Assembly: GCF_030684315.1 (NCBI RefSeq)
Contig: NC_081354.1
Coordinates: 28,948,226-29,012,225 of the forward strand
Source of the DNA: Stegostoma tigrinum
Lineage: Eukaryota
Direction: 5' to 3'
DNA length: 64,000 nt
Positions 6,311 to 64,000 of this stretch are shown here, one piece after another. The notes beneath the pieces were generated by a model. That model searched no databases. It was not told the origin of the DNA and was given only the letters and a program-made list of their open reading frames with translations. The position numbers and the translations under genes are program-made. The stretch's first letter is position 1. Each line of letters begins with the position of its first letter.

Positions 6311-6479
6311 AGGGTATTATGTCAGGTGGCAATAAGGATGGCAAACCCCTCAGCCTTCATTCATGTAACAGTAGATAAACTGACAGTGGAACCTATGAGG
6401 AAAAGTAAACACCCATTTAAAATTGTGATGATGTGGTTAATGAATTATCACCCATGCTATCCGTGCTCAGAATGTTTAG

Positions 6480-11103: not shown

Positions 11104-12343
11104 TCTGGCTCCCTCATTTAATCTATTGCAAAGTAATATCCAAAGTATGTTTTTGTAATTGTAATAGAAACCAATGACTGAAAGAAGAGCCATTGGATAC
11201 TGCATATTGGCAAATTCCATAATAATAAAACTTTATTAATTTTTGATAAAAGATCATTTATGCTTACGTTTCAGTATTGTTTGACTCTGTGTTATTACCC
11301 ACACTTACCTTTCACATACACATTTCCTTAGCCCAAGAAAATATATTTACAAAACATTTGCAAAATCTGTATTTATATTCATACAGAATCAAAGCATTGC
11401 AGAAGTGCATCTTTTCCATATGTGAAAATCCCTGCAGGGATCTGCGCTGGGTCCTCCACATTTTACAATTTGTATCAATTACTGAGACAAAATGCTCAAA
11501 GACATGGAGAAAAAATTTGCAGATGGCATAACATATTTCCTATCTATGTTGTGAAGATGTGCCTCTCATGTTTCAATAGGGAGTGTAGTAGAAATCAAGC
11601 CTTGATATTCCCAAAGTCACGAAAATTAAAGATTTCAAAGGAAATACACTAACTCCCCAAAGTAACTGATTTTTAGACCCAGCTTGACAAACCACCAACC
11701 AGATTTCTGTATTTAACAAGAAATAATATTCACTCTAGGTTATTCTAGCTACAGGTAAATAATTAAACTAAATTAACTTAATGCTACAAAATAAAACCCT
11801 AAAGCTACAATAAACACCATCGTACACAGATACTCAGGCAAAACACAAAATAACACATGGGTACAGGGAAAACAGGGGGAAAATATAGGTCCATAGTATT
11901 TGATGAGATCTGTTGGGTTGGTTCTTATTGTTGCCCATGATTTGGACATTTGGACAACTTTACGTATTAAAACATTACGAAAGCGCTCTTGAACGTGAGG
12001 CGGAAAAAACAGACACTAATCAGTTTGCGCATCAACTTGATTTTATTAACAAACTATTCCTTATTAAAAACACCATGTGAGCATTTCACAAAATTCCACC
12101 GTATTTACTCTCTATCCAGCTACATTTGCATGAAAAAGAATATTATCCACAATGATCCATGTGTTTGACCCAGGCCTTTGGAATATCCTTCCTCTCCAAT
12201 GGAGGGCTGGCTTTCTTCCACAAAAGTGGATCTCCTCCCGTGTCTGAGATAATGGGAACTGCAGATGCTGGAGAATTCCAAGACAACAAAATGTAAGGCT
12301 GGATGAACACAGCAGGCCAAGCAGCATCTCAGGAGCACAAAAG

Positions 12344-12373
12344 CTGACGTTTCGGGCCTAGACCCTTCATCAG
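12344..12373 (-). ncRNA. Minimal hammerhead ribozyme motif (intact core)
   Basis: Minus strand CUGAUGA-A-GGGU CUAG GCCC-GAAAC-GUC-AG. Confidence 0.8.
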
Positions 12374-12897
12374 AGAGGGGGATGGGGAGAGGGAACTGGG
12401 ATAAATAGGGGGAGGCGGACCGAAGATGGAGAGTAAAGAAGATAGGTGGAGAGAGTATAGGTGGGGAGGTAGGGAGGGGATAGGTCAGTCCAGGGAAGGT
12501 CAAGGTGGTGGGATGAGGTTAGTAGGTAGATAGGGGTGCGGCTTGGGGTGGGAGGAAGGGATGGGTGAGAGGAAGAACCGGTTAGGGAGGCAGAGACAGG
12601 TTGGACTGGTTTTGGGATGCAGTGGGTGGGGGGGAAGAGCTGGGCTGGTTGTGTGGTGCAGTGGGGGGAGGGGACGAACTGGGCTGGTTTAGGGATGCAG
12701 TTGGGGAAGGGGAGATTTTGAAACTGGTGAAGTCCACATTGATACCATTAGGCTGCAGGGTTCCCAGGCGGAATATGAGTTGCTGTTCCTGCAACCTTTG
12801 GGTGGCTTCATTGTGGCACTGCAGGAGGCCCATGATGGACATGTCATCTAAAGAATGGGAGGGGGAGTGGAAATGGTTTGCGATATACTAGTCACGA

Positions 12898-15068
12898 TTG
12901 GACATAGAGCAGTTTTTCCGCCGTCTTCGCCTCCATGCCTACTTCTTCAACCGGGAGCCTAACCCTCCCTCCACTGACCCCTTCACCCGCTTCCAACACA
13001 AGTCCTCCTCCTGGACACCACCCCCAGGCCTCCTACCCTCCCTCGACCTCTTCATCTCCAACTGCCGTCGAGACATTAACCGCCTCAACCTCTCCACCCC
13101 TCTCACCCACTCCAACCTCTCCCCCGCAGAACGGGCAGCCCTCCGCTCCAACCCCAACCTCACCATCAAACCCGCAGACAAGGGTGGCGCAGTGGTAGTA
13201 TGGCGCATTGACCTCTACATCACCGAGGCCAGACGCCAACTCTCCGACACCACCTCCTATCACCCCCTCAATCATGACCCCACACCCGAGCACCAAACCA
13301 TCATCTCCAACACCATTCATGACCTCATCACCTCAGGGCACCTCCCACCCACAGCCTCCATTCTCAGTGTTCCCCAACCCCGCACGGCCCGTTTCTATCT
13401 CCTTCCCAAAATCCACAAGCCTGCCTGCCCTGGTCGACACATCGTCTCAGCCTGCTCCTGCCCCACCGAACTCATCTCCACCTATCTAGACTCCATTTTC
13501 TCCCCTTTGGTCCAGGAACTTCCCACCTACGTCCGTGGCACCACCCACGCCCTCCACCTCCTCCAGGACTTCCAATTCCCTGGCCCCCAACACCTCATCT
13601 TCACCATGGATGTCCAGTGCCTATACACCTGCATTCCACATGCAGATGGCCTCAAAGCCCTCCGCTTCTTCCTGTCTCGCAGGCCCGACCAGTCCCCCTC
13701 CACCGACACCCTCATCCGCCTGGCTGAACTCGTCCTCACACTCAACAACTTCTCTTTTGACTCCTCCCACTTCCTATAGACTAAGGGGGTGGCCATGGGC
13801 ACCCGCATGGGCCCCAGCTATGCCTGCCTCTTTGTAGGTTACGTGGAACAGTCCCTCTTCCACACCTACACAGGCCCCAAACCCCACCTCTTCCTCCGGT
13901 ACATTGATGACTGTATCGGCGCCGCCTCTTGCTCCCCACAGGAGCTCGAACAGTTCATCCACTTCACCAACACCTTCCACCCCAACCTTCAGTTCACCTG
14001 GACCATCTCCAGCACATCCCTCACCTTCCTGGACCTCTCAGTCTCCATCTCAGGCAACCAGCTTGTAACTGATGTCCATTTCAAACCCACCGACTCCCAC
14101 AGCTACCTAGAATACACCTCCTCCCACCCACCCTCCTGCAAAAATTCCATCCCCTATTCCCAATTCCTCCGCCTCCGCCGCATCTGCTCCCACGATAAGA
14201 CATCCCACTCCCGCACATCCCAGATGTCCAAGTTCTTCAAGGACCGCAACCTTCCCCCCACAGTGATCGAGAACGCCCTTGACTGCGTCTCCCGTATTTC
14301 CCGCAACACATCCCTCACACCCCGCCCCCGCCACAACCGCCCAAACAGGATCTCCCTCGTTCTCACACACCACCCTACCAACCTCCGGATACAACGCATC
14401 ATCCTCCGACACTTCCGCCATTTACAATCCGACCCCACCACCCAAGACATTTTTCCATCCCCACCCCTGTCTGCTTTCCGGAGAGACCACTCTCTCCGTG
14501 ACTCCCTTGTTCGCTCCACACTGCCCTCCAACCCCACCACACCCGGCACCTTCCCCTGCAACCGCAGGAAATGCTACACTTGCCCCCACACCTCCTCCCT
14601 ACCCCTATCCCAGGCCCCAAGATGACATTCCACATTAAGCAGAGGTTCACCTGCACATCTGCCAATGTGGTATACTGCATCCACTGTACCCGGTGTGGCT
14701 TCCTCTACATTGGGGAAACCAAGCGGAGGCTTGGAGACCGCTTTGCAGAACACCTCCACTCAGTTCGCAACAAACAACTGCACCTCCCAGTCGCAAACCA
14801 TTTCCACTCCCCCTCCCATTCTTTAGATGACATGTCCATCATGGGCCTCCTGCAGTGCCACAATGATGCCACCCGAAGGTTGCAGGAACAGCAACTCATA
14901 TTCCGCCTGGGAACCCTGCAGCCATATGGTATCAATGTGGACTTCACCAGTTTCAAAATCTCCCCTTCCCCAACTGCATCCCTAAACCAGCCCAGTTCGT
15001 CCCCTCCCTCCACTGCACCACACAACCAGCCCAGCTCTTCCCCCCCACCCACTGCATCCCAAAACTAG
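12898..15068 (+). pseudogene. PLE polyprotein (RT, Cys-rich linker, GIY-YIG endonuclease), 5'-truncated, one stop and one frameshift
   Basis: FFRRLRL, IKPADKGGAVVV, FYLLPKIHK, TMDVQCLYT, GVAMGTRMGP, RYIDD, TFLD; PCNRRKCYTCPH linker; NVVYCIHCTRCGFLYIGETKRRLGDRFAEH; TAG at 13777-13779; frameshift near 14600. Confidence 0.93.
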
Positions 15069-15072
15069 TCCA
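14969..15072 (+). repeat. Three ~38-bp tandem units at the end of the PLE ORF
   Basis: Repeating ccactgca(t/c)c...aaccagcccag units encoding PTA..NQPSSSPP; also present at 12600-12705 (minus) and 22857-22960. Confidence 0.8.
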
Positions 15073-15316
15073 ACCTGTCTCTGCCTCCCTAACCGGTTCT
15101 TCCTCTCACCCATCCCTTCCTCCCACCCCAAGCCGCACCCCCATCTACCTACTAACCTCATCCCACCTCCTTGACCTGTCCGTCTTCCCTGGACTGACCT
15201 ATCCCCTCCCTACCTCCCCACCTATACTCTCTCCACCTATCTTCTTTACTCTCCATCTTCGGTCCGCCTCCCCCTCTCTCCCTATTTATTGCAGTTCCCT
15301 CTCCCCATCCCCCTCT

Positions 15317-15346
15317 CTGATGAAGGGTCTAGTTCCGAAACGTCAG
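15317..15346 (+). ncRNA. Minimal hammerhead ribozyme motif (stem II weakened)
   Basis: CTGATGAAGGGTCTAGTTCCGAAACGTCAG. Confidence 0.7.
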
Positions 15347-16213
15347 CTTTTGTGCTCCTGAGATGCTGCTTGGCCTGCTGTGTTCATCCAGCCTCACATT
15401 TTGTTCTCCTCCTGTGTCTTCTTAGATTGCAGCACATCTTCTGCCACAAGTCTTCACTGAGGGGGCGTTTCAGTGTGTGCTTTTACACACATTGCCCCAG
15501 ACCTTCCCAAATGTGTGGTCTTCATCCAATTGAGTCACAAGCTGGGTTGAAAACCTCCAATGCACTCACGCCAACACCCTTAGCTGTTGCTCTGCCAGGA
15601 GATGTAAAGTGCACGTCCTCAGGTGTCAGCTGGAGTCAAGGTGACCAGAAGCATGATTCAAAACTTCTTTAATACACAACCCTTGGGCTGGTTGTAACTG
15701 GTTCCCCCTGAATCTGTGACCTCTTTGACCTTGGTTACCACTGCTCTCTGCAGCCAATGTCTGCTGTTTAATTTAGTTTGGCCAATTTACTGTCAGGCTT
15801 GATTTCTCCAACTGTGGATTAAATAGAACCTTCAATTTTGGGCCCTGTGGTCACTTGACCACACTTTATTTTTTCTGAACGTTTCCATGAGTTTGTAAGA
15901 GGAACATGGTGGCTGGTCCATTTATGAAAGTGGACTTATACAATTGAAACTTACAATTTGCAGCATCTGCTGGAAGAAAAATCAGTTTTCTTCAAGTTTT
16001 CTACTGCGAAGAAAAATTTTGACCGCTGCAAATTTGTTAGTTTATCTTGAAGGTCTGGAAAATTCAGGGGTTCCTCCAGTATCTCAAAGTTTGCTTGACA
16101 TTCTGCTGGTCACACTACTTTTGCTCATCACCAACAGATTAATTGAAGGCACGGCTATCGCAAGTACATTTCTAGTAAATGCCAAACATCCCAAAAAACC
16201 TCATGATTTCACA

Positions 16214-16429
16214 GAGATAATGGGAACTGCAGATGCTGGAGAATTCCAAGATAATAAAATGTGAGGCTGGATGAACACAGCAGGCCAAGCAGCAACTCAG
16301 GAGCACAAAAGCTGACGTTTCGGGCCTAGACCCTTCATCTGATGAAGGGTCTAGGCCCGAAACATCAGCTTTTGTGCTCCTGAGATGCTGCTTGGCCTGC
16401 TGTGTTCATCCAGCCTCACATTTTATTAT
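16214..16429. mobile_element. Palindromic PLE-terminus mini-element with hammerhead
   Basis: Arms 16249-16339 and 16341-16431 (2 mismatches) centred on T16340; plus-strand core CTGATGA...GAAACATC at 16339-16368; TSD CTCATGATTTC(A/T)CA at 16200-16213 and 16430-16443. Confidence 0.9.
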
Positions 16430-17319
16430 CTCATGATTTCTCATTTAGTTTTAAGAACATGGAATTCTAAAATAGTCTTCAGTTTTGCTTGTTGTTATCC
16501 AACAATGTCATAAACTCATCTTCTCTAAATTCTCCAACGTTGTATTAAACAACCCAACTACAATTGATAAAACAGGACTTCAACTTATCCCACATGCTCT
16601 TCCAATATGTCACTACTTAGTACAGCATCATCTAAATAGACCATGCAATTACAAACTCCAACTACTACTTGATTCATAAGCCTCATGGAACGTAGAAGGG
16701 CATTCTTTAAAAAGCTTCACATGATGTGTTACACCAAATGAGTTATACCAAAACTGACATTTCTTTAGCCTTTGGTATTAAAGGCACTTTCCAGTACCAC
16801 ATCAATAGAGGAATCGTTGAAAGGAATGTTGCACTAGCAATGCTACCAATGCAATTGAGTACGAATTGAGTATGCCACATTCACCTCTCTATCATGTATA
16901 CAAAATCTAGTTGATTCATTCTGTTTAAGAACCAACACTACAGATGGACTCTAGCTGCTTTGACTAGGTTCAAATGAGTGATTTTCCAGTATGTTCTGAT
17001 CCTGTTTCCAGTCAAGCTTGTTTTTCTGTGCTTACCCAATAATGTTGTTATGGCTCTCGCATATTTGCATCTAGCTAATCAAGTTGTATCTCCACAGAAT
17101 ACTCTACGTTTCCTTAGTAATCTTAAGATCCCCCAATTACCTTTAACTGTAAGAACACAGTGCCTAGCAATACCAATATTTCACTGTTAGATAGTCAAGC
17201 TGTAGGAGGCTCTCTGAGAACTGTCTACTTGTTCTTCTACCTCACTCTTAACTCCATCATCTTCCAATAAATTCCAGCCTGACATACTCGGTCATTTAAT
17301 GAGGATCATTTCAGAGAAG

Positions 17320-17690
17320 TCAGTTTACTAAAAGGACTAGACGAGTTACATACAAGAAGAATGTTCCTGATAGTGGGGGGAGTCAGAACTGGGGGTCACA
17401 GTTTAAGGATAATGAGTAAACCTTTTGGGACTGAGATGAGAGAAATTTCTTCACCCAGAGAGTGGTGGCCCTGTGGAATTCATGACCACAGAACGTGGTT
17501 GAGGCAAACATTGTGTTTTCAAAAGAAGATGAATATCTTTTGTAGCTAAAGGGATCATGGGATATGGAGGAGCTGGAGATTAGGTTATTAAACTGGAATG
17601 AGCAGCCAAGATCATATTGAATGGCGGGGATGGCTTAAGGGGTTGAATGGCCTCCTCTTGTTCCGATCTTCATTATTTCTAGGTTTCTAG
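17320..17690 (+). mobile_element. CR1 LINE 3' end fragment
   Basis: RTGGHSLRI...MREISSPREW (TRGH/RRNFFS-like) followed by a typical 3' UTR. Confidence 0.75.
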
Positions 17691-17944: not shown

Positions 17945-18080
17945 GAGATAATAGGAACTGCAGATGCTGGAGAATCCAAGATAACAAAGAGCTTTCTGAT
18001 GAAGGGTCTAGGCCCGAAACGTCAGCTTTTGTGCTCCTGAGATGCTGCTTGGCCTGCTGTGTTCATCCAGCTCCACACTT
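17945..18080 (+). mobile_element. PLE-terminus mini-element with intact hammerhead core (17996-18025) and inverted tail
   Basis: CTGATGAAGGGTCTAGGCCCGAAACGTCAG; perfect TSD TGCTATGCTAATA at 17932-17944 and 18081-18093. Confidence 0.88.
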
Positions 18081-19435
18081 TGCTATGCTAATACCTTGAT
18101 TATTTCTGCCTTTCTGGTTGTCAGGCAGATCTCCTCCAGTTTGATCAGCAAGTCTGTCAATGTGGATTTCGAAAATTCCCTTAAGACTACCACAGAGAAC
18201 TCTGTCACCCACAGGAAAGCTTTTGCAATTTTACTGATATGACTTAAATGCAGTCCGGAACCTGTGTTATTTATTGATACCACACCCAAATCTTCAATGT
18301 CTGTGTTTCTAATCCAATTTAATCCGGGCCACGAGGCCCCAAATTTTGGAAGGACTGTGCAAACTGTTACAGTTCTCTAAATTCTCCCCAGATAGCTGGT
18401 GTCAATTTCTGACATCTGAAACAAAAACAAAGGGCTGGAGAAATTAAGCAGATCTGGCAACAGCTGTGGAGCTAAAAAAGAACAGAGTTCAAGTTTCAAG
18501 TTCAGTGACCCTTCTTCAGAACTGAAAGCAACTGAGAAATGATGGTATTCATGCTGATGACTGAGGCTGGAAACGAGTAAGATGAATAGATGAAGACAGG
18601 GCCCAGAGAAGATAGGCCCAGAGAGGATAAATTAGAACCACACAAAGGGTTGTTTATAGTAAACCATGTGAGAAGTAAATGCTTAATGGGTGATATTGGG
18701 AAGTGTGAGTAGATGATAATGGGTTGTTTGTGCTGAGACCAACCCATATAGAACAGGACCTGGGGTGCAGGGCTGGGTAATGGACATGGGAGGGGGAGAA
18801 AAAGGTCTTCACACTCTGAGATTGTTAAACCCAATGTTAGGTTCTGCGGCCTGTAAAGTACCTAGGCGGAAAATGAGGTGTTCCTCCAGCTTGCATTCAG
18901 CTTTGCTGGAGCACTGCATGGAAATGTTGTCATGGGTACATGGTGGTGTGAGATGGAAATGTTGATGTGGGAACATGGTGGTGCATTGAAGGACCAGGCA
19001 ACTGGAAACCTGGGGTCATTCTTACAGACAGAGCAGAGGTGTTCTGCAAAGCAGTCACCCAGTTTGTGTTTCACCACCCCAGTACAGAGGATTCAACATT
19101 GAGAGCAACAGACTAAATTGAATGAAGTGTAAATAAATCGCTGCTTCATCCAAAGGTATATCTGGGACCTTGGATAGTGAGGAGGGAGAAGGTAAACTAG
19201 CAAGTGTTGCACCTTCTAAAATTGCATGAGGAGGTGACGTGGGGTAGGGGAGGCATCTGGAGTACAGTATGAGGTGGAATCAAGGTATCAGTCTTTGCAG
19301 AATGCTGACAAGGGAAGGAAGGAAACATGCGGCTGGTGATGGCAACTGGGAGGGAGAGGAAATGGCAGTTTATGGTCCTCTAGATGTGGTGGCTGATGTG
19401 GTGGGAAGTGAAGACAAGGGGTACTTATCATTGAT

Positions 19436-19530
19436 AGATAATAAAATGTGAGGCTGGACGAACGCAGCAGGCCAAGCAGCATCTCAGGAGCACAAAAGCT
19501 GACGTTTCGGGCCTAGACCCTTCATCAGAG
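19436..19530 (-). mobile_element. PLE-terminus mini-element with intact hammerhead core (19499-19528)
   Basis: Matches the 12285-12375 terminus and stops just 5' of CUGAUGA. Confidence 0.85.
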
Positions 19531-21689: not shown

Positions 21690-24640
21690 TTGTTGTCTCA
21701 TATGGAGAGGAAAGGAGTTGCTTTTACCATAACTGACTAATCGCTTTTATTTATGTATTATGAAAAGGTACATGTATGGCTTATACATTAGACAATACAC
21801 AAATAACTCAGTTGTTTTCCTGAAAGAACTAGAACCTATTTGTACACCACAAAAGGCCACTAACACTTCCAGAATTATCACAGGATATAAAAGCTAATAC
21901 CCATGCAGAAAAGCTGCTGTGGCTGTGCGGATTGACATTAGCCAGATATCGCCCTCGATGCCATCACATCCTGAAATGAGGGGTGCGCTTCTACTAAAGA
22001 TGATCTCTGGAGTTTTTGCTGGTTGCATGCCCCAAGGGTTATTTTCTTCTTTTTCCTGATCTTTCTCAAGTCATGTTGTCTCTTTCTTATGATTCAGGCT
22101 AATTCAATTATCACATCTTTATCTTATTGGCCCTAGACCAGAGATTTAGGTAGCATTACCTCATTGCTCCTTGTACAAATAAGGCTTTTGCATTGCCTCA
22201 TCTTTCTTACTTTTTTGCAGAACTTCGCTGGCACCAAGTGGTTCTGACCAGCTCTGGCCAGCTCCTAGATTATCCTCAGTTCACAAGCTGCTTCTTTCTT
22301 TATGTCAGCATTTTTTTTTACCTTCAGTATCTCTTGTTAATAATATTCGTGACTGACAGCCCCTATTTTCAACTTTCTCTGCAGCTTCTGGTCAGCATCT
22401 CCCAGGCAGTGATGACAATGGCTGGCATGCCTGCCTCTCTCTCTCCCCCGCTGCAGCCCCTGGCTAACAAGCCAAAACAATAGCTGCTGTTCAATGATGG
22501 AGTCATGGTCCGGGGGAGATAAGAAGCTATGTCCAAGAGCCAGTGAGGATGCATTACACTCAAAATATGAAATCTATTTCTCTCTCCACAGATGCTACCA
22601 GACTTGAGTTTCAGAGCTCCATCATCTGGACTTCTTTGTTTTAGAACATAGAACATTACAGCGCAGCATAGGCCCTTCGGCCCTCAATGTTGCGCCAACC
22701 TGTGAAACCAATCTGAAGCCCATCTAACCTACACAATTCAATTATCAACCAATTGCCACCCGAAGGTTGCAGGAACAGCAACTCATATTCCGCCTGGGAA
22801 CCCTGCAGCCTAATGGTATCAATGTGAACTTCACCAGTTTCAAAATCTCCCCTTCCCCAACTGCATCCCTAAACCAGCCCAGTTCGTCCCCTCCCCCCAC
22901 TGCACCACACAACCAGCCCAGCTCCTCCACTCCACCCACTGCATCCCAAAACCAGTCCAACCTGTCTCCGCCTCCCTAACCGGTTCTTCCTCTCACCCAT
23001 CCCTTCCTCCCACCCCAAGCCGCACCCCCATCTACCTACTAACCTCATCCCACCTCCTTGACCTGTCCGTCTTCCCTGGACTGACCTATCCCCTTCCTAC
23101 CTCCCCACCTATACTCTCTCCACCTATCTTCTTTACTCTCCATCTTCGGTCCGCCTCCCCCTCTCTCCCTAATTATTCCAGAACCCTCACCCCATCCCCC
23201 TCTCTGATGAAGGGTCTAGGCCCGAAACATCAGCTTTTGTGCTCCTGAGATGCTGCTTGGCCTGCTGTATTCATCCAGCCTCACATTTTGTTGTCTTGGA
23301 TTCTCCAGCATCTGCAGTTCCCATTATCTCAATTATCAACCATCTGTTTATCCAATGACCATTTAAATGCCCTTAAAGTTGGCAAGTCTACTACTGTTGC
23401 AGGCAGGGCATCCCACGCCCTTACTCCCGAGTAAAGAATCTACCTCTGACATCTGTCCTATATCTATCACCCCTCAATTTAAAGCTGTGTCCCCTCATGC
23501 TATTAGTTTAGTATTCCATGTCTTCCCCTTCAACTGCTCCATTTGAACCTTATAGTCACATTCTCTCTCGTCATCTTTATAGGTTCATAATCCTGAGAAA
23601 ACTCCTCTAACAACAAAGCATAAATTTCCTATGCTTTACCTATCAATTTACTCATTTGCCTAATTAATTTGAGAATGCCTCCAAATCTTTTTCCTCAAAT
23701 TTAAATGGAGTATTAGCTACCCTAAAATCCGTTTGAAGTATTACTGTGACCTCTGGTGATGGACTTTGTTTAGCCATGGCTCTGGTCACTACTTATGGTG
23801 GATTAACACCTGTAACCTGATCCTCCAAATTGTTCCATCTCCTCAGCCTCAACTTAGCTTTGCATGATTACAGCTCGTATGCAGAGGAAAAGAGTCGCTT
23901 TCACCATAACTGACTAATTGCTTTTATTTACATTTTGTGAAAAGGTACAAGTATGGCTTATACATTAGACAAAACACAAGTAACTCATATGTTTTCCTGA
24001 AAGAACTAGCACCTTGTTGTCTCAGATTCTCCAGCATCTGCAGTCCCTGCTATCTCTGCATCCTGTAGGTTTCGCTTTCAACTTCCAGAATTGTGAATAA
24101 ATACATTGCAAGTTGTTACAATAGAAATGTCTTGGTTTCTAATTTACACCTCCACTCTCAGTATTATCCCTTCCAACCGTAGGAGGGGACATTGAGGTAT
24201 TCCCAGCTATCCATTTCTTACCTTGGTTACTGCCTTCATTTCATTCAATGTACATCCTTTTACATTTGAATGTGAGACAGAATAAAGGATTAGTTTTATT
24301 GTTTAATTCAAACATCAGCTTTTTTTTGTTGCCTATCTACCAACTGCAATCCCTTGGCGCTCAATAAGAGTTCTTATTAAAGAAGGTAGTGTGTTTTTAG
24401 ATTCCTCTAAGAAAATAATCTAAAAACTTCATTGATCATTTCAGTTTCTAATGCTCTTAATTACCTGTTTAACCATTTTGAATTCAGTATAGGTTTCCCC
24501 AGGCTGATTACTTAACTTCTGGAATCTTTGCTTATTTGCCTCAGGCACAAACTCATGTGGCAATAGTTTTGAAAAGCACAAAAATAAAAAGAGACATTGG
24601 TCTATACTGGTCTGCATTCTTGTTATGTGAGCAGGCAAAA
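21690..24640 (-). mobile_element. Decayed Gmr1-like Gypsy internal fragment (gag/protease/integrase region)
   Basis: HEFVPEANKQRFQKL..QPGETYTEF (24441-24638), IIFLEESKNTLP (~24385-24420), VVTRAMAK (~23770-23792). Confidence 0.55.
22752..23330 (+). mobile_element. PLE 3' fragment with tail; hammerhead at 23204-23233
   Basis: Near-identical to 14867-15404 and adds the 3' tail; TSD AATTATCAACCA at 22740-22751 and 23331-23342; inserted into a CR1 3' fragment (~22640-23500, minus). Confidence 0.9.
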
Positions 24641-62145: not shown

Positions 62146-63078
62146 ATGGGAACGGAGGTCAGGGCAGTTGAATGTTCCTCCTGCAGAATGTGGGAGGTAA
62201 GGGTCACCACTAGTGTCCCTGCTGACTACATCTGCGGGAAGTACACCCAACTCCAGCTCCTTGAAAACCACGTTAGGGAACTGGAGCTGGAGCTGGACGA
62301 ACTTCGGATCATTCGGGAGGCAGAGGGGGTTATTGAGAGGAGTTACAGGGAGGTAGTCACTCCTCAAGTACAGGAGAAAAGCAGATGGGTTACGGTCAGG
62401 GGACAGAAAGGGAATCAGCAGGCAGTGCAGGGATCCCCTGTGGCCATTCCCCTCAACAATAAGTAAACCGTTTTGGATACTGTTGGGGGGGGGACTTACC
62501 AGGGGGAAGCAGTGGGGCACAGGTCTCCGGCACAGAGTCCGTCCCAGTAGGGAAGGGGGAAGAGGAGCAGAGCAGTAGTCATTGGGGACTCCATAGTTAG
62601 GGGGACAGATAGGAAGTTCTGTGGGGACGAGAGAGACTCACGGTTGGTGTGTTGCCTCCCAGGTGCCAGGGTGCATGATGTCTCTGATCGTGTTTTTGGG
62701 ATCCTTAAGGGGGAGGGCGAGCAGCCCCAAGTCGTGGTCCACATTGGCACCAACGACATAGGGAGGAAGAGAGATGGGGATTTAAGGCAGAAATTTAGGG
62801 AGCTAGGATGGAAGCTGAGAACTAGGACGAACAGAATTGTTGTCTCTGGTTTGTTGCCCGTGCCAAGTGCTAGTGAGGCGAGGAATAGGGAGAGAGAGGA
62901 GTTGAACACGTGGCTACAGGGATGGTGCAGGAGGGAGGGTTTTGGATTCTTGGATAATTGGGGCTCTTTCTGGGGTAGGTGGGACCTCTACAAGCAAGAT
63001 GGTCTTCACCTGAACCAGAGGGGTACCGATATCCTTGGGGGGAAATTTGCTAAGGCTATTCGGGTGGGTTTAAACTAA
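62146..63078 (+). pseudogene. CR1 ORF1p: zinc-finger/leucine-zipper plus SGNH esterase, disrupted
   Basis: CSSC...CGK(Y) with leucine heptads; VIGDSIVRG (~62578), LPGARVHDV, VVHIGTND, DGLHLN; stops at 62464-62466 and ~62548. Confidence 0.88.
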
Positions 63079-63137
63079 TTCAGCAGGGGGGTGGGAACCA
63101 AAATTGTAGTTCGACTATAGAAAATGTTGAGAGTAGG

Positions 63138-64000
63138 GTGGTCCAAAATAAAGTTTCAGGGAAGCAAGATGGCACCGGCAAGCAAGAAGTTGGTTTGAAG
63201 TATGTCTACTTCAATTGCAGGAGCGTCCGGAATAAGGTGGGAGAACTTGCAGCATGGGTTGGTACCTGGGACTTCCAAGTTGTGGCCACTTCGGAAACAT
63301 GGATAGAACAGGGACAGGAATGGTTGTTGCAGGTTCTGGGATTTAGATGTTTCAGTAAGAACAGAGAAGATGGTAAAAGGGGCGGAGGTGTGGCATTGTT
63401 GGTCAAGGACAGTATTACAGTTGCAGAAAGGATGTTTGGGGACTCGTCAACTGAGGTAGTATGGGCTGAGGTTAGAAACAGGAAAGGAGAGATCACCCTG
63501 TTGGGAGTTTTCTATAGGCCTCTGAACAGTTCCAGAGATGTAGAGGAAAGGATAGCAAAGATGATTCTCGATAGGAGTGAGACAGACAGGGTAGTTGTCA
63601 TGGGGGACTTCAACTTTCCAAATATTGACTGGGAACACTATAGTTCGAGTACTATAGATGGGTCAGTTTTTGTCCAGTGTGTGCAGGAGGGCTTCCTGAC
63701 ACAGTGTGTAGATAGGCCAACAGGGGCAAAGCCACATTAGATTTGGTACAGGGTAATGAGCCCGGCCAGGTGTTAGATTTGGAAGTAGGTGAGCACTTTG
63801 GTGATAGCAATCACAATTCTGTTATGTTTAATTTAGTGATGGAAAGGGATAGGTGTATACCACTGGGCAAGAGTTATAGCTGGGGGAAAGGCAATTACAA
63901 TGAGATTAGGCAAGATTTAGGGAGCATAGGATGGGGAAGGAAACTGCAGGGGATGGACACATTAGAAATGTGGATCCTATTCAAGGAAAAGCTCCTGTGT
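63138..64000 (+). pseudogene. CR1 ORF2 apurinic-like endonuclease domain, frameshifted near 63725
   Basis: YFNCRSVRNK, SETW, GGGVA, GVFYRP, MGDFNFP, then LDL and GDSNH in the next frame. Confidence 0.9.

Follow-up and report, generated by a model that had tools for sequence, protein, structure and literature searches.

A palindrome in the genome of Stegostoma tigrinum folds back within the catalytic core of a hammerhead ribozyme motif, which raises the question of what its centre marks: the core itself, the ribozyme cut further downstream or the beginning of the RNA from which it was copied. We addressed this question at the locus, in the window (the whole stretch of 64,000 nucleotides that was analysed) and genome-wide. 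Element positions are counted from the G of GATGA, which corresponds to G5 of the core CUGAUGA and to window position 16341, and is taken as position 0.

Structure and insertion site of the palindrome

The two arms (16249–16339 and 16341–16431) have 91 nt each, are 98% complementary and are separated by a 1-nt spacer, in agreement with the preliminary description, whose two arm mismatches could be placed at 16295 and 16316. The left arm (16249–16339, minus strand) comprises element positions 0 to +90, reads the core as CAGAUGA, has a single substitution, at 16295, and is preceded by a 35-bp tail (16214–16248, minus strand), which is present on this arm only and whose outer end presumably corresponds to the outer start site of the reverse transcriptase (RT). 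The right arm (16338–16431, plus strand) is tail-less and extends from −3 to +90, its final two bases overlapping the target site. The arms overlap by 2 nt at the junction TC-T-GA (16338–16342), which is self-complementary except for the central base, and are unequal, since the left one with its tail spans 0 to +125, the difference being the 35-bp tail. The RNA of the palindrome is predicted to form a hairpin of −189 kcal/mol (z −24), for which roles as a Dicer or ADAR substrate, or as a cruciform in the DNA, were suggested as possibilities; a search of sequencing runs listed no RNA run that contains the stretch.

The insert totals 218 bases, derives in both arms from the 3′ end of a common Penelope-like element (PLE) and is flanked by a direct repeat (16200–16213 and 16430–16443, plus strand), the 13/14 target site duplication (TSD) that had been taken to indicate a single insertion event. 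A single event is indeed what the TSD and the empty site of a related species show, as in the latter (three runs from three studies) the left flank joins the right flank directly. Because this species has the empty site, the insertion is lineage-specific and the right-hand repeat represents the ancestral site, with which it is identical; the left-hand repeat differs from the empty-site allele at 16211. The related species also has, relative to the window, an 11-bp insertion at 16160.

Two runs of the same species provided short-read unitigs, none of which bridges the centre of the palindrome, as would be expected of an assembly or library fold-back artefact, but the probability of such an artefact is close to nil: both outer junctions are covered by unitigs (15769–16233 and 16408–17400), and the TSD, the one-sided tail, the two arm mismatches and the clean empty site in the relative all speak against it. 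The palindrome is a genuine insertion, formed by two short copies of the hammerhead-bearing end of a PLE placed head to head, and, taken by itself, the locus is dead and unremarkable.

A minimal form of the inverted PLE architecture

Insertions of EN+ PLEs are described as containing an inverted 5′-truncated copy, a tail of 30–40 bp on one end and a TSD (PMC8557442; PMC3846280), and this inverted architecture is already published. We observed the same organization here, with a pLTR, an inverted 5′-truncated copy and a one-sided tail of 35 bp, and the proposal that the locus is a minimal version of it is supported by the presence of one tailed arm, one tail-less arm and the TSD. The layout is repeated in a long parent copy (12246–15408, plus strand), composed of an inverted 638-bp tailed arm (12246–12883), followed by disrupted RT and GIY-YIG frames and by an end that lacks the tail. 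The 13/14 TSD is also in line with the longest flanking repeats of 81 loci, whose mode is 14–15 bp.

The coding content is that of the parent family of EN+ PLEs: the open reading frames (ORFs) at 12892–15068 belong to an element whose homologues contain PF00078 and, in some cases, also PF01541, the closest named homologues being those of carpet sharks (94% and 70% identity). The window's own GIY-YIG match in Pfam is weak (E 5e-4, below the cut-off) and its RT pieces gave no Pfam match. In one copy, the long ORF of the element seems to begin ~170 nt past the core, and not at stem II.

Other insertions of the same family were identified in the window, namely an asymmetric head-to-head pair (17945–18081), a solo arm starting at −5 (19436–19529) and a 560-bp tailed copy (22755–23330). 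The ORFs at 62551–63740 seem to resemble the esterase-like ORF1 and the start of the endonuclease ORF2 of a CR1-type LINE.

The hammerhead motif in this copy and in the family

Using a descriptor from PMC4209133, we located a minimal type I hammerhead motif at 16339–16369 (plus strand), with a predicted cut at 16366/16367. It had been stated that T16340 is the U of CUGAUGA, the plus strand reading a full core and the minus strand CAGAUGA. The position (U4) and the minus-strand reading are correct, but the plus-strand motif is not intact, as a G>A substitution at 16364 (GAAACGUC to GAAACAUC) disrupts its palindromic stem III; in addition, the other arm takes the place of most of the 5′ side of its stem I. 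Because of this substitution in the plus-strand motif and of U4>A in the minus-strand one, neither motif is intact, and this copy lacks the combination of an intact core and a foldable stem III. It is likely a dead end, since each of its cores carries damage and would be trapped in the predicted 91-bp helix, in which the two motifs lie. A scan of the window against Rfam gave no match up to an E-value of 1.

The family consensus has all the elements of a minimal type I hammerhead: CUGANGA, a bulged base, a paired stem II, GAAA, the palindromic 15.2–16.2 and UH. The bulged base is A in all 146 family motifs inspected, 108 of which contain GAAA-CGTC, and, among the 14 commonest variants, all but one (13) pair at five positions of stem II, three pairs being forced by the search descriptor.

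Palindrome centres concentrate upstream of the core

Junctions were counted genome-wide by means of exact 11-mers on both arms, while several of the counts given among the matches listed were made by eye, from matches nearly all on contig C1. Spacers of 0–8 nt were found at 3,745 loci, which include 1,274 with the exact 1-nt junction observed here, and spacers of 9–18 nt at 6,363, amounting to 10,108 loci that join within 18 nt of the centre. The identical test at upstream positions returned 2 loci at −39 and 5 at ~−120, these controls being blind to overlap joins (as happens with the AGCT joins treated below); the local sample, which is free of that blind spot, has few ends there. In an older subfamily there are 3,004 junctions versus 3 in the reversed control. 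Approximately 131,000 copies of the core match one exact pattern.

Untargeted arm starts (n = 134, in loci that total 1.2 Mb and from which the targeted centres were excluded) are distributed as follows: 39 in −10 to +2, 1 in −29 to −11, 3 in −99 to −30, 35 farther upstream, 54 in +3 to +70 (~9 of which are likely subfamily alignment artefacts) and 2 beyond +70. The density is 3 starts per nt in −10 to +2 against ~0.05 per nt in −11 to −299. Starts at this hot spot account for 39 of 100 core-pattern rows among the matches listed, the mode being at approximately −6 (13 of 44 short arms in the local sample), and a perfect join of two −6 arms was observed at 10 of 50 loci among the matches listed for spacers of 9–18 nt.

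The symmetry centres, whose genome-wide distribution had been proposed as a check, are therefore far from random. Their position does not bear out the view that the centre is special for being inside the catalytic core, since the peak lies a few bases upstream, at ~C-6. The 1-nt-spacer form (1,274 of 10,108) is a subclass trimmed to the TCAGA/TCTGA microhomology, whose overlap with C3–U4 follows from the self-complementarity of TC-T-GA. On the basis of these positions, the centre likely marks the beginning of an RNA, rather than the ribozyme cut 26 nt downstream.

A putative RNA start site at C-6

We noticed that TATTTATT, present ~36 nt upstream of the core in the long parent copy (12246–15408), is found 36–37 nt ahead of position 0 in 46 of 49 long copies, i.e., ~30 nt before C-6, and ~30 nt is the spacing between a TATA box and the transcription start. 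The start of the element near C-6 resembles, we presume, a TCT-type initiator. It is quite probable that a capped RNA would start at ~C-6 under this TATA-like box; box spacing and an extra G, both read as footprints in the DNA, are compatible with a Pol II TATA/initiator promoter. When it is not a templated C, the base before C-6 is G in 67, T in 26 and A in 7 per 100 matches listed, and, in the rows in which the arm is joined to host DNA, G precedes C-6 in 17 of 31 versus 26% expected (p 7e-4), while at other ends it precedes the arm in 17 of 67. Relative to the +38 control (9 of 20) the excess is not significant (p 0.08), the partner strand is G-rich and, in the local sample, G precedes only 14 of 44 hot-spot arms, all start positions considered. 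In L1, an extra G is described as a cap signature of full-length insertions (PMC11702581).

A different origin of the pile-up can be conceived, in which both strands are primed but the RT stalls at the ribozyme edge, or at the pyrimidine tract (G-rich in the cDNA), of a longer RNA, and the extra G results from terminal-transferase activity. Stalling would fit with full-length copies usually crossing −6 seamlessly and with a G excess that is weak against the +38 control; nevertheless, it accounts neither for a TATA-like box at promoter spacing in both subfamilies nor for the lack of G excess at the other ends (17/67), and, of 39 arms extending beyond −10, a single one stops within the following 19 nt, where the pyrimidine tract itself is located. 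We consider it quite unlikely.

The start at C-6 does not extend to most full-length copies. Among 30 copies that continue past the tail only 5 begin at the hot spot; C-6 is therefore not their usual 5′ end, and longer RNAs or strand transfer must also exist. The upstream TATA region is retained in 5 of the 6 copies that have long ORF coverage, so the hot spot as 5′ end of full-length copies was, for the most part, discarded. Many of the copies continuing past the tail (L126–L155) end ~105–125 nt into the downstream reference, at ~+240 to +250, which may represent either a third start site of the RT or a hot spot of self-insertion.

One locus, L065, had been considered as a full-length element that runs from the hot spot and whose arm derives from a different template, and was dropped because its paralogue, L066, ends at the tail; furthermore, a clear TSD is missing at L065, which may have arisen through later recombination. 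The two (G000:C1, ~19.04 and ~19.09 Mb) are inverted paralogous segments whose shared flank ends at the stub palindrome, and in one of them the tailed arm is continued by a full-length element, pointing to a recombination event at the stub.

Composition of the arms and probable priming of both target strands

Of 81 junctions, 79 have the tail on a single arm, 2 have no tail and none has it on both arms. The 1-nt spacer, seen from the tailed side, is A in 25 cases and T in 18. The arms of a pair resemble each other at the sites that distinguish subfamilies, with 3–10 discordant pairs per site versus 12–35 expected, and share 15 private variants, in addition to 145 unshared differences. Arms are discordant at +52 in 5 of 78 pairs, so that a minority requires two templates or later conversion; conversion within the hairpin could also have produced the likeness of the arms. 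Untargeted pairs (n = 34) are short-short in 24 cases, long-long in 10 and mixed in none, with 14 mixed pairs expected. Since the tail is missing at both ends in 3 of the 4 informative long pairs, the strict asymmetry is limited to the stubs.

Shared variants and matched arm lengths would follow directly from a snap-back, in which the tail-primed cDNA reaches the RNA end, folds, copies itself back to ~+90 and joins the other target end, and a snap-back after full-length cDNA synthesis is reported for R2 proteins (PMC11371274). However, the centre is T from the tailed side in 18 of the 43 1-nt junctions, a class of which a tailed cDNA copying itself cannot be the source. Moreover, 1-nt and 0-nt junctions are among the commonest, and a loop of 1 or 0 nt cannot close within a single strand; the stop at ~+90 and the discordant arms are also left unexplained, and we regard the snap-back as unlikely.

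The roughly equal frequency of A and T centres, together with the one-sided tail, favours priming of both strands over a cDNA snap-back, and two-strand priming on one RNA starting at ~C-6 is, in our judgement, the probable explanation of the stub palindromes. The RNA would begin at ~C-6, with the TATA-like box 30 nt upstream; one target strand would be primed at ~+125 and the other at ~+90, and both cDNAs would run to the 5′ end of the RNA. The two cDNA 3′ ends would then pair over TCAGA, leaving an A-A mismatch in the centre; flaps would be trimmed and repair would fix the centre as A or T. Short capped RNAs of the pLTR promoter would likely be the source of the stubs, and full-length copies would result from RNAs of greater length or from strand transfer. 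A Poseidon protein was described in vitro to cut and extend both strands, with a predicted dimer and two start sites a tail apart (PMC11167929); in the same study neither start site showed a strand preference, which counts against this scheme. Two-strand priming leaves unexplained the minority of discordant arms (5/78 at +52) and the tail-less long pairs (3/4 informative).

Palindromes at inverted junctions have been described before and explained by self-priming of an antisense transcript, as suggested for Adineta Penelope elements (PMC3846280). Although this is the published reading of head-to-head junction palindromes, we find it highly improbable here, because the sense strand bears the TATA box as well as the initiator-like start and the extra G, the tail is explained in vitro by start sites on the sense RNA (PMC11167929) and an A/T symmetry at the centre is not predicted by it.

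The high copy number, the TSDs and the very stable hairpin could point instead to a self-propagating MITE-like or hairpin-RNA element, maintained for its dsRNA or ribozyme function. Such an element, or a retrozyme, would descend with fixed ends and a fixed junction, whereas we observed dozens of junction forms, variable short-arm ends and a tail side that bears no relation to the spacer. Each locus has private variants of its own, the cores are decayed here and the related species is without the insertion, which leaves this reading with very little probability. Each stub thus has an independent origin, given that the loci are unlike in their junction forms, short-arm ends and variants.

A possible second peak at the predicted ribozyme cut

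Arms starting at +26, the predicted cut, make up 54 of 100 rows among the matches listed (~3,800 of 7,015), compared with 20 of 100 among the matches listed at +38 (~680) and with ~7,400 at −6 after a base other than C. Most of the +26 arms belong to palindromes centred exactly on the predicted cut, whose halves overlap on AGCT; 43 Mb contained 21 such loci (~1,560 genome-wide). Joins on ACGT, an equally long self-complementary word located 4 nt upstream, are estimated at ~50 (26 of 50 among the matches listed, of 96), and the ~30-fold abundance of AGCT over ACGT joins favours RNA ends at the cut. Arms joined to host DNA have no excess at +26 (3 rows versus 5, ~210 versus ~170). The local sample (1.3 Mb), which is too small for counting junction classes, contains no AGCT join and 2 ACGT pattern matches, one of them a true palindrome, from an older subfamily. 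A comparison of 3,745 hot-spot with 96 cut-site junctions was withdrawn, as the 96-locus control missed the common AGCT-overlap joins. In Anolis, no reads ending at the ribozyme cut site were found (PMC11167929). Ribozyme cutting in vivo may or may not have occurred, with about even chances, and would concern sister copies, not the one described here.

Significance and comparison with known systems

The origin of tandem and inverted PLE structures is still considered undefined in PMC8557442, and our literature search, in which subscription journals were thinly covered, retrieved no article that places a fixed capped start at the edge of the hammerhead or that invokes twin priming for PLEs. We tentatively propose, at somewhat less than even confidence, that the >10,000 palindromes could be the Penelope counterpart of strong-stop DNA, made by a dimeric RT-endonuclease that would prime both strands of the target at two fixed sites on one capped RNA, which would start from a pyrimidine initiator 4 nt before the core, and that ~1,500 further palindromes at the cut site would record ribozyme cutting in the germ line. 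If this were the case, the genome would constitute a base-resolution record of how inverted PLE structures are formed. The fixed start, the one-sided tail and the A/T-symmetric centre lead to specific predictions that concern the PLE system already established in vitro. The insertion itself is common, and it is the palindrome class that is useful, as a mechanistic footprint; with ~10,000 near-perfect 90-bp palindromes per genome, which mimic MITEs, it matters for repeat annotation and is possibly relevant to the dsRNA load.

The palindromes share with the EN+ PLEs described in PMC3846280 and PMC8557442 the head-to-head truncated copy, the tail on one end, the TSD, the junction palindrome and the pLTR hammerhead, and differ from what the available text of these articles describes in having no ORF, arms of only ~95–130 nt, one fixed stop point and >10,000 loci. 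The motif resembles the minimal hammerheads of metazoan PLEs, as presented in PMC4209133, in its conserved boxes, the extra base between 9 and 10.1, G10.1-C11.1, the palindromic 15.2–16.2 and a short helix I. The hammerhead pairs described there are on opposite strands, 100–700 bp apart, whereas the present locus has two damaged motifs, whose overlap lies at the core.

Non-LTR retrozymes (bioRxiv 10.64898/2026.07.22.740005) are described as equally short, non-autonomous, pLTR-derived and hammerhead-bearing, but as head-to-tail tandems of intact ribozymes, while the insertion studied here is a head-to-head one-off. Head-to-tail arrays of ribozyme units do occur in this genome, at G000:C4:89989961-89992578 (nine matches ~309 bp apart) and at L121 (~440-bp units); these are retrozyme-like and, in principle, able to form a dimeric hammerhead.

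The Poseidon PAc element of Anolis (PMC11167929) is similar in its two RT start sites a tail apart, the extension of both target strands, the C-terminal GIY-YIG and a minimal hammerhead near the 5′ end of the ORF region, although neither the formation of inverted junctions nor the RNA start is addressed in the available text of that study. The proposed mechanism is also reminiscent of L1 twin priming, as described in PMC11702581, with a second RT event from the other target strand, a join by microhomology and an extra G at complete 5′ ends; in L1, two different abutting parts of the RNA are copied, resulting in an inversion, whereas here the same part would be copied twice, giving rise to a palindrome.
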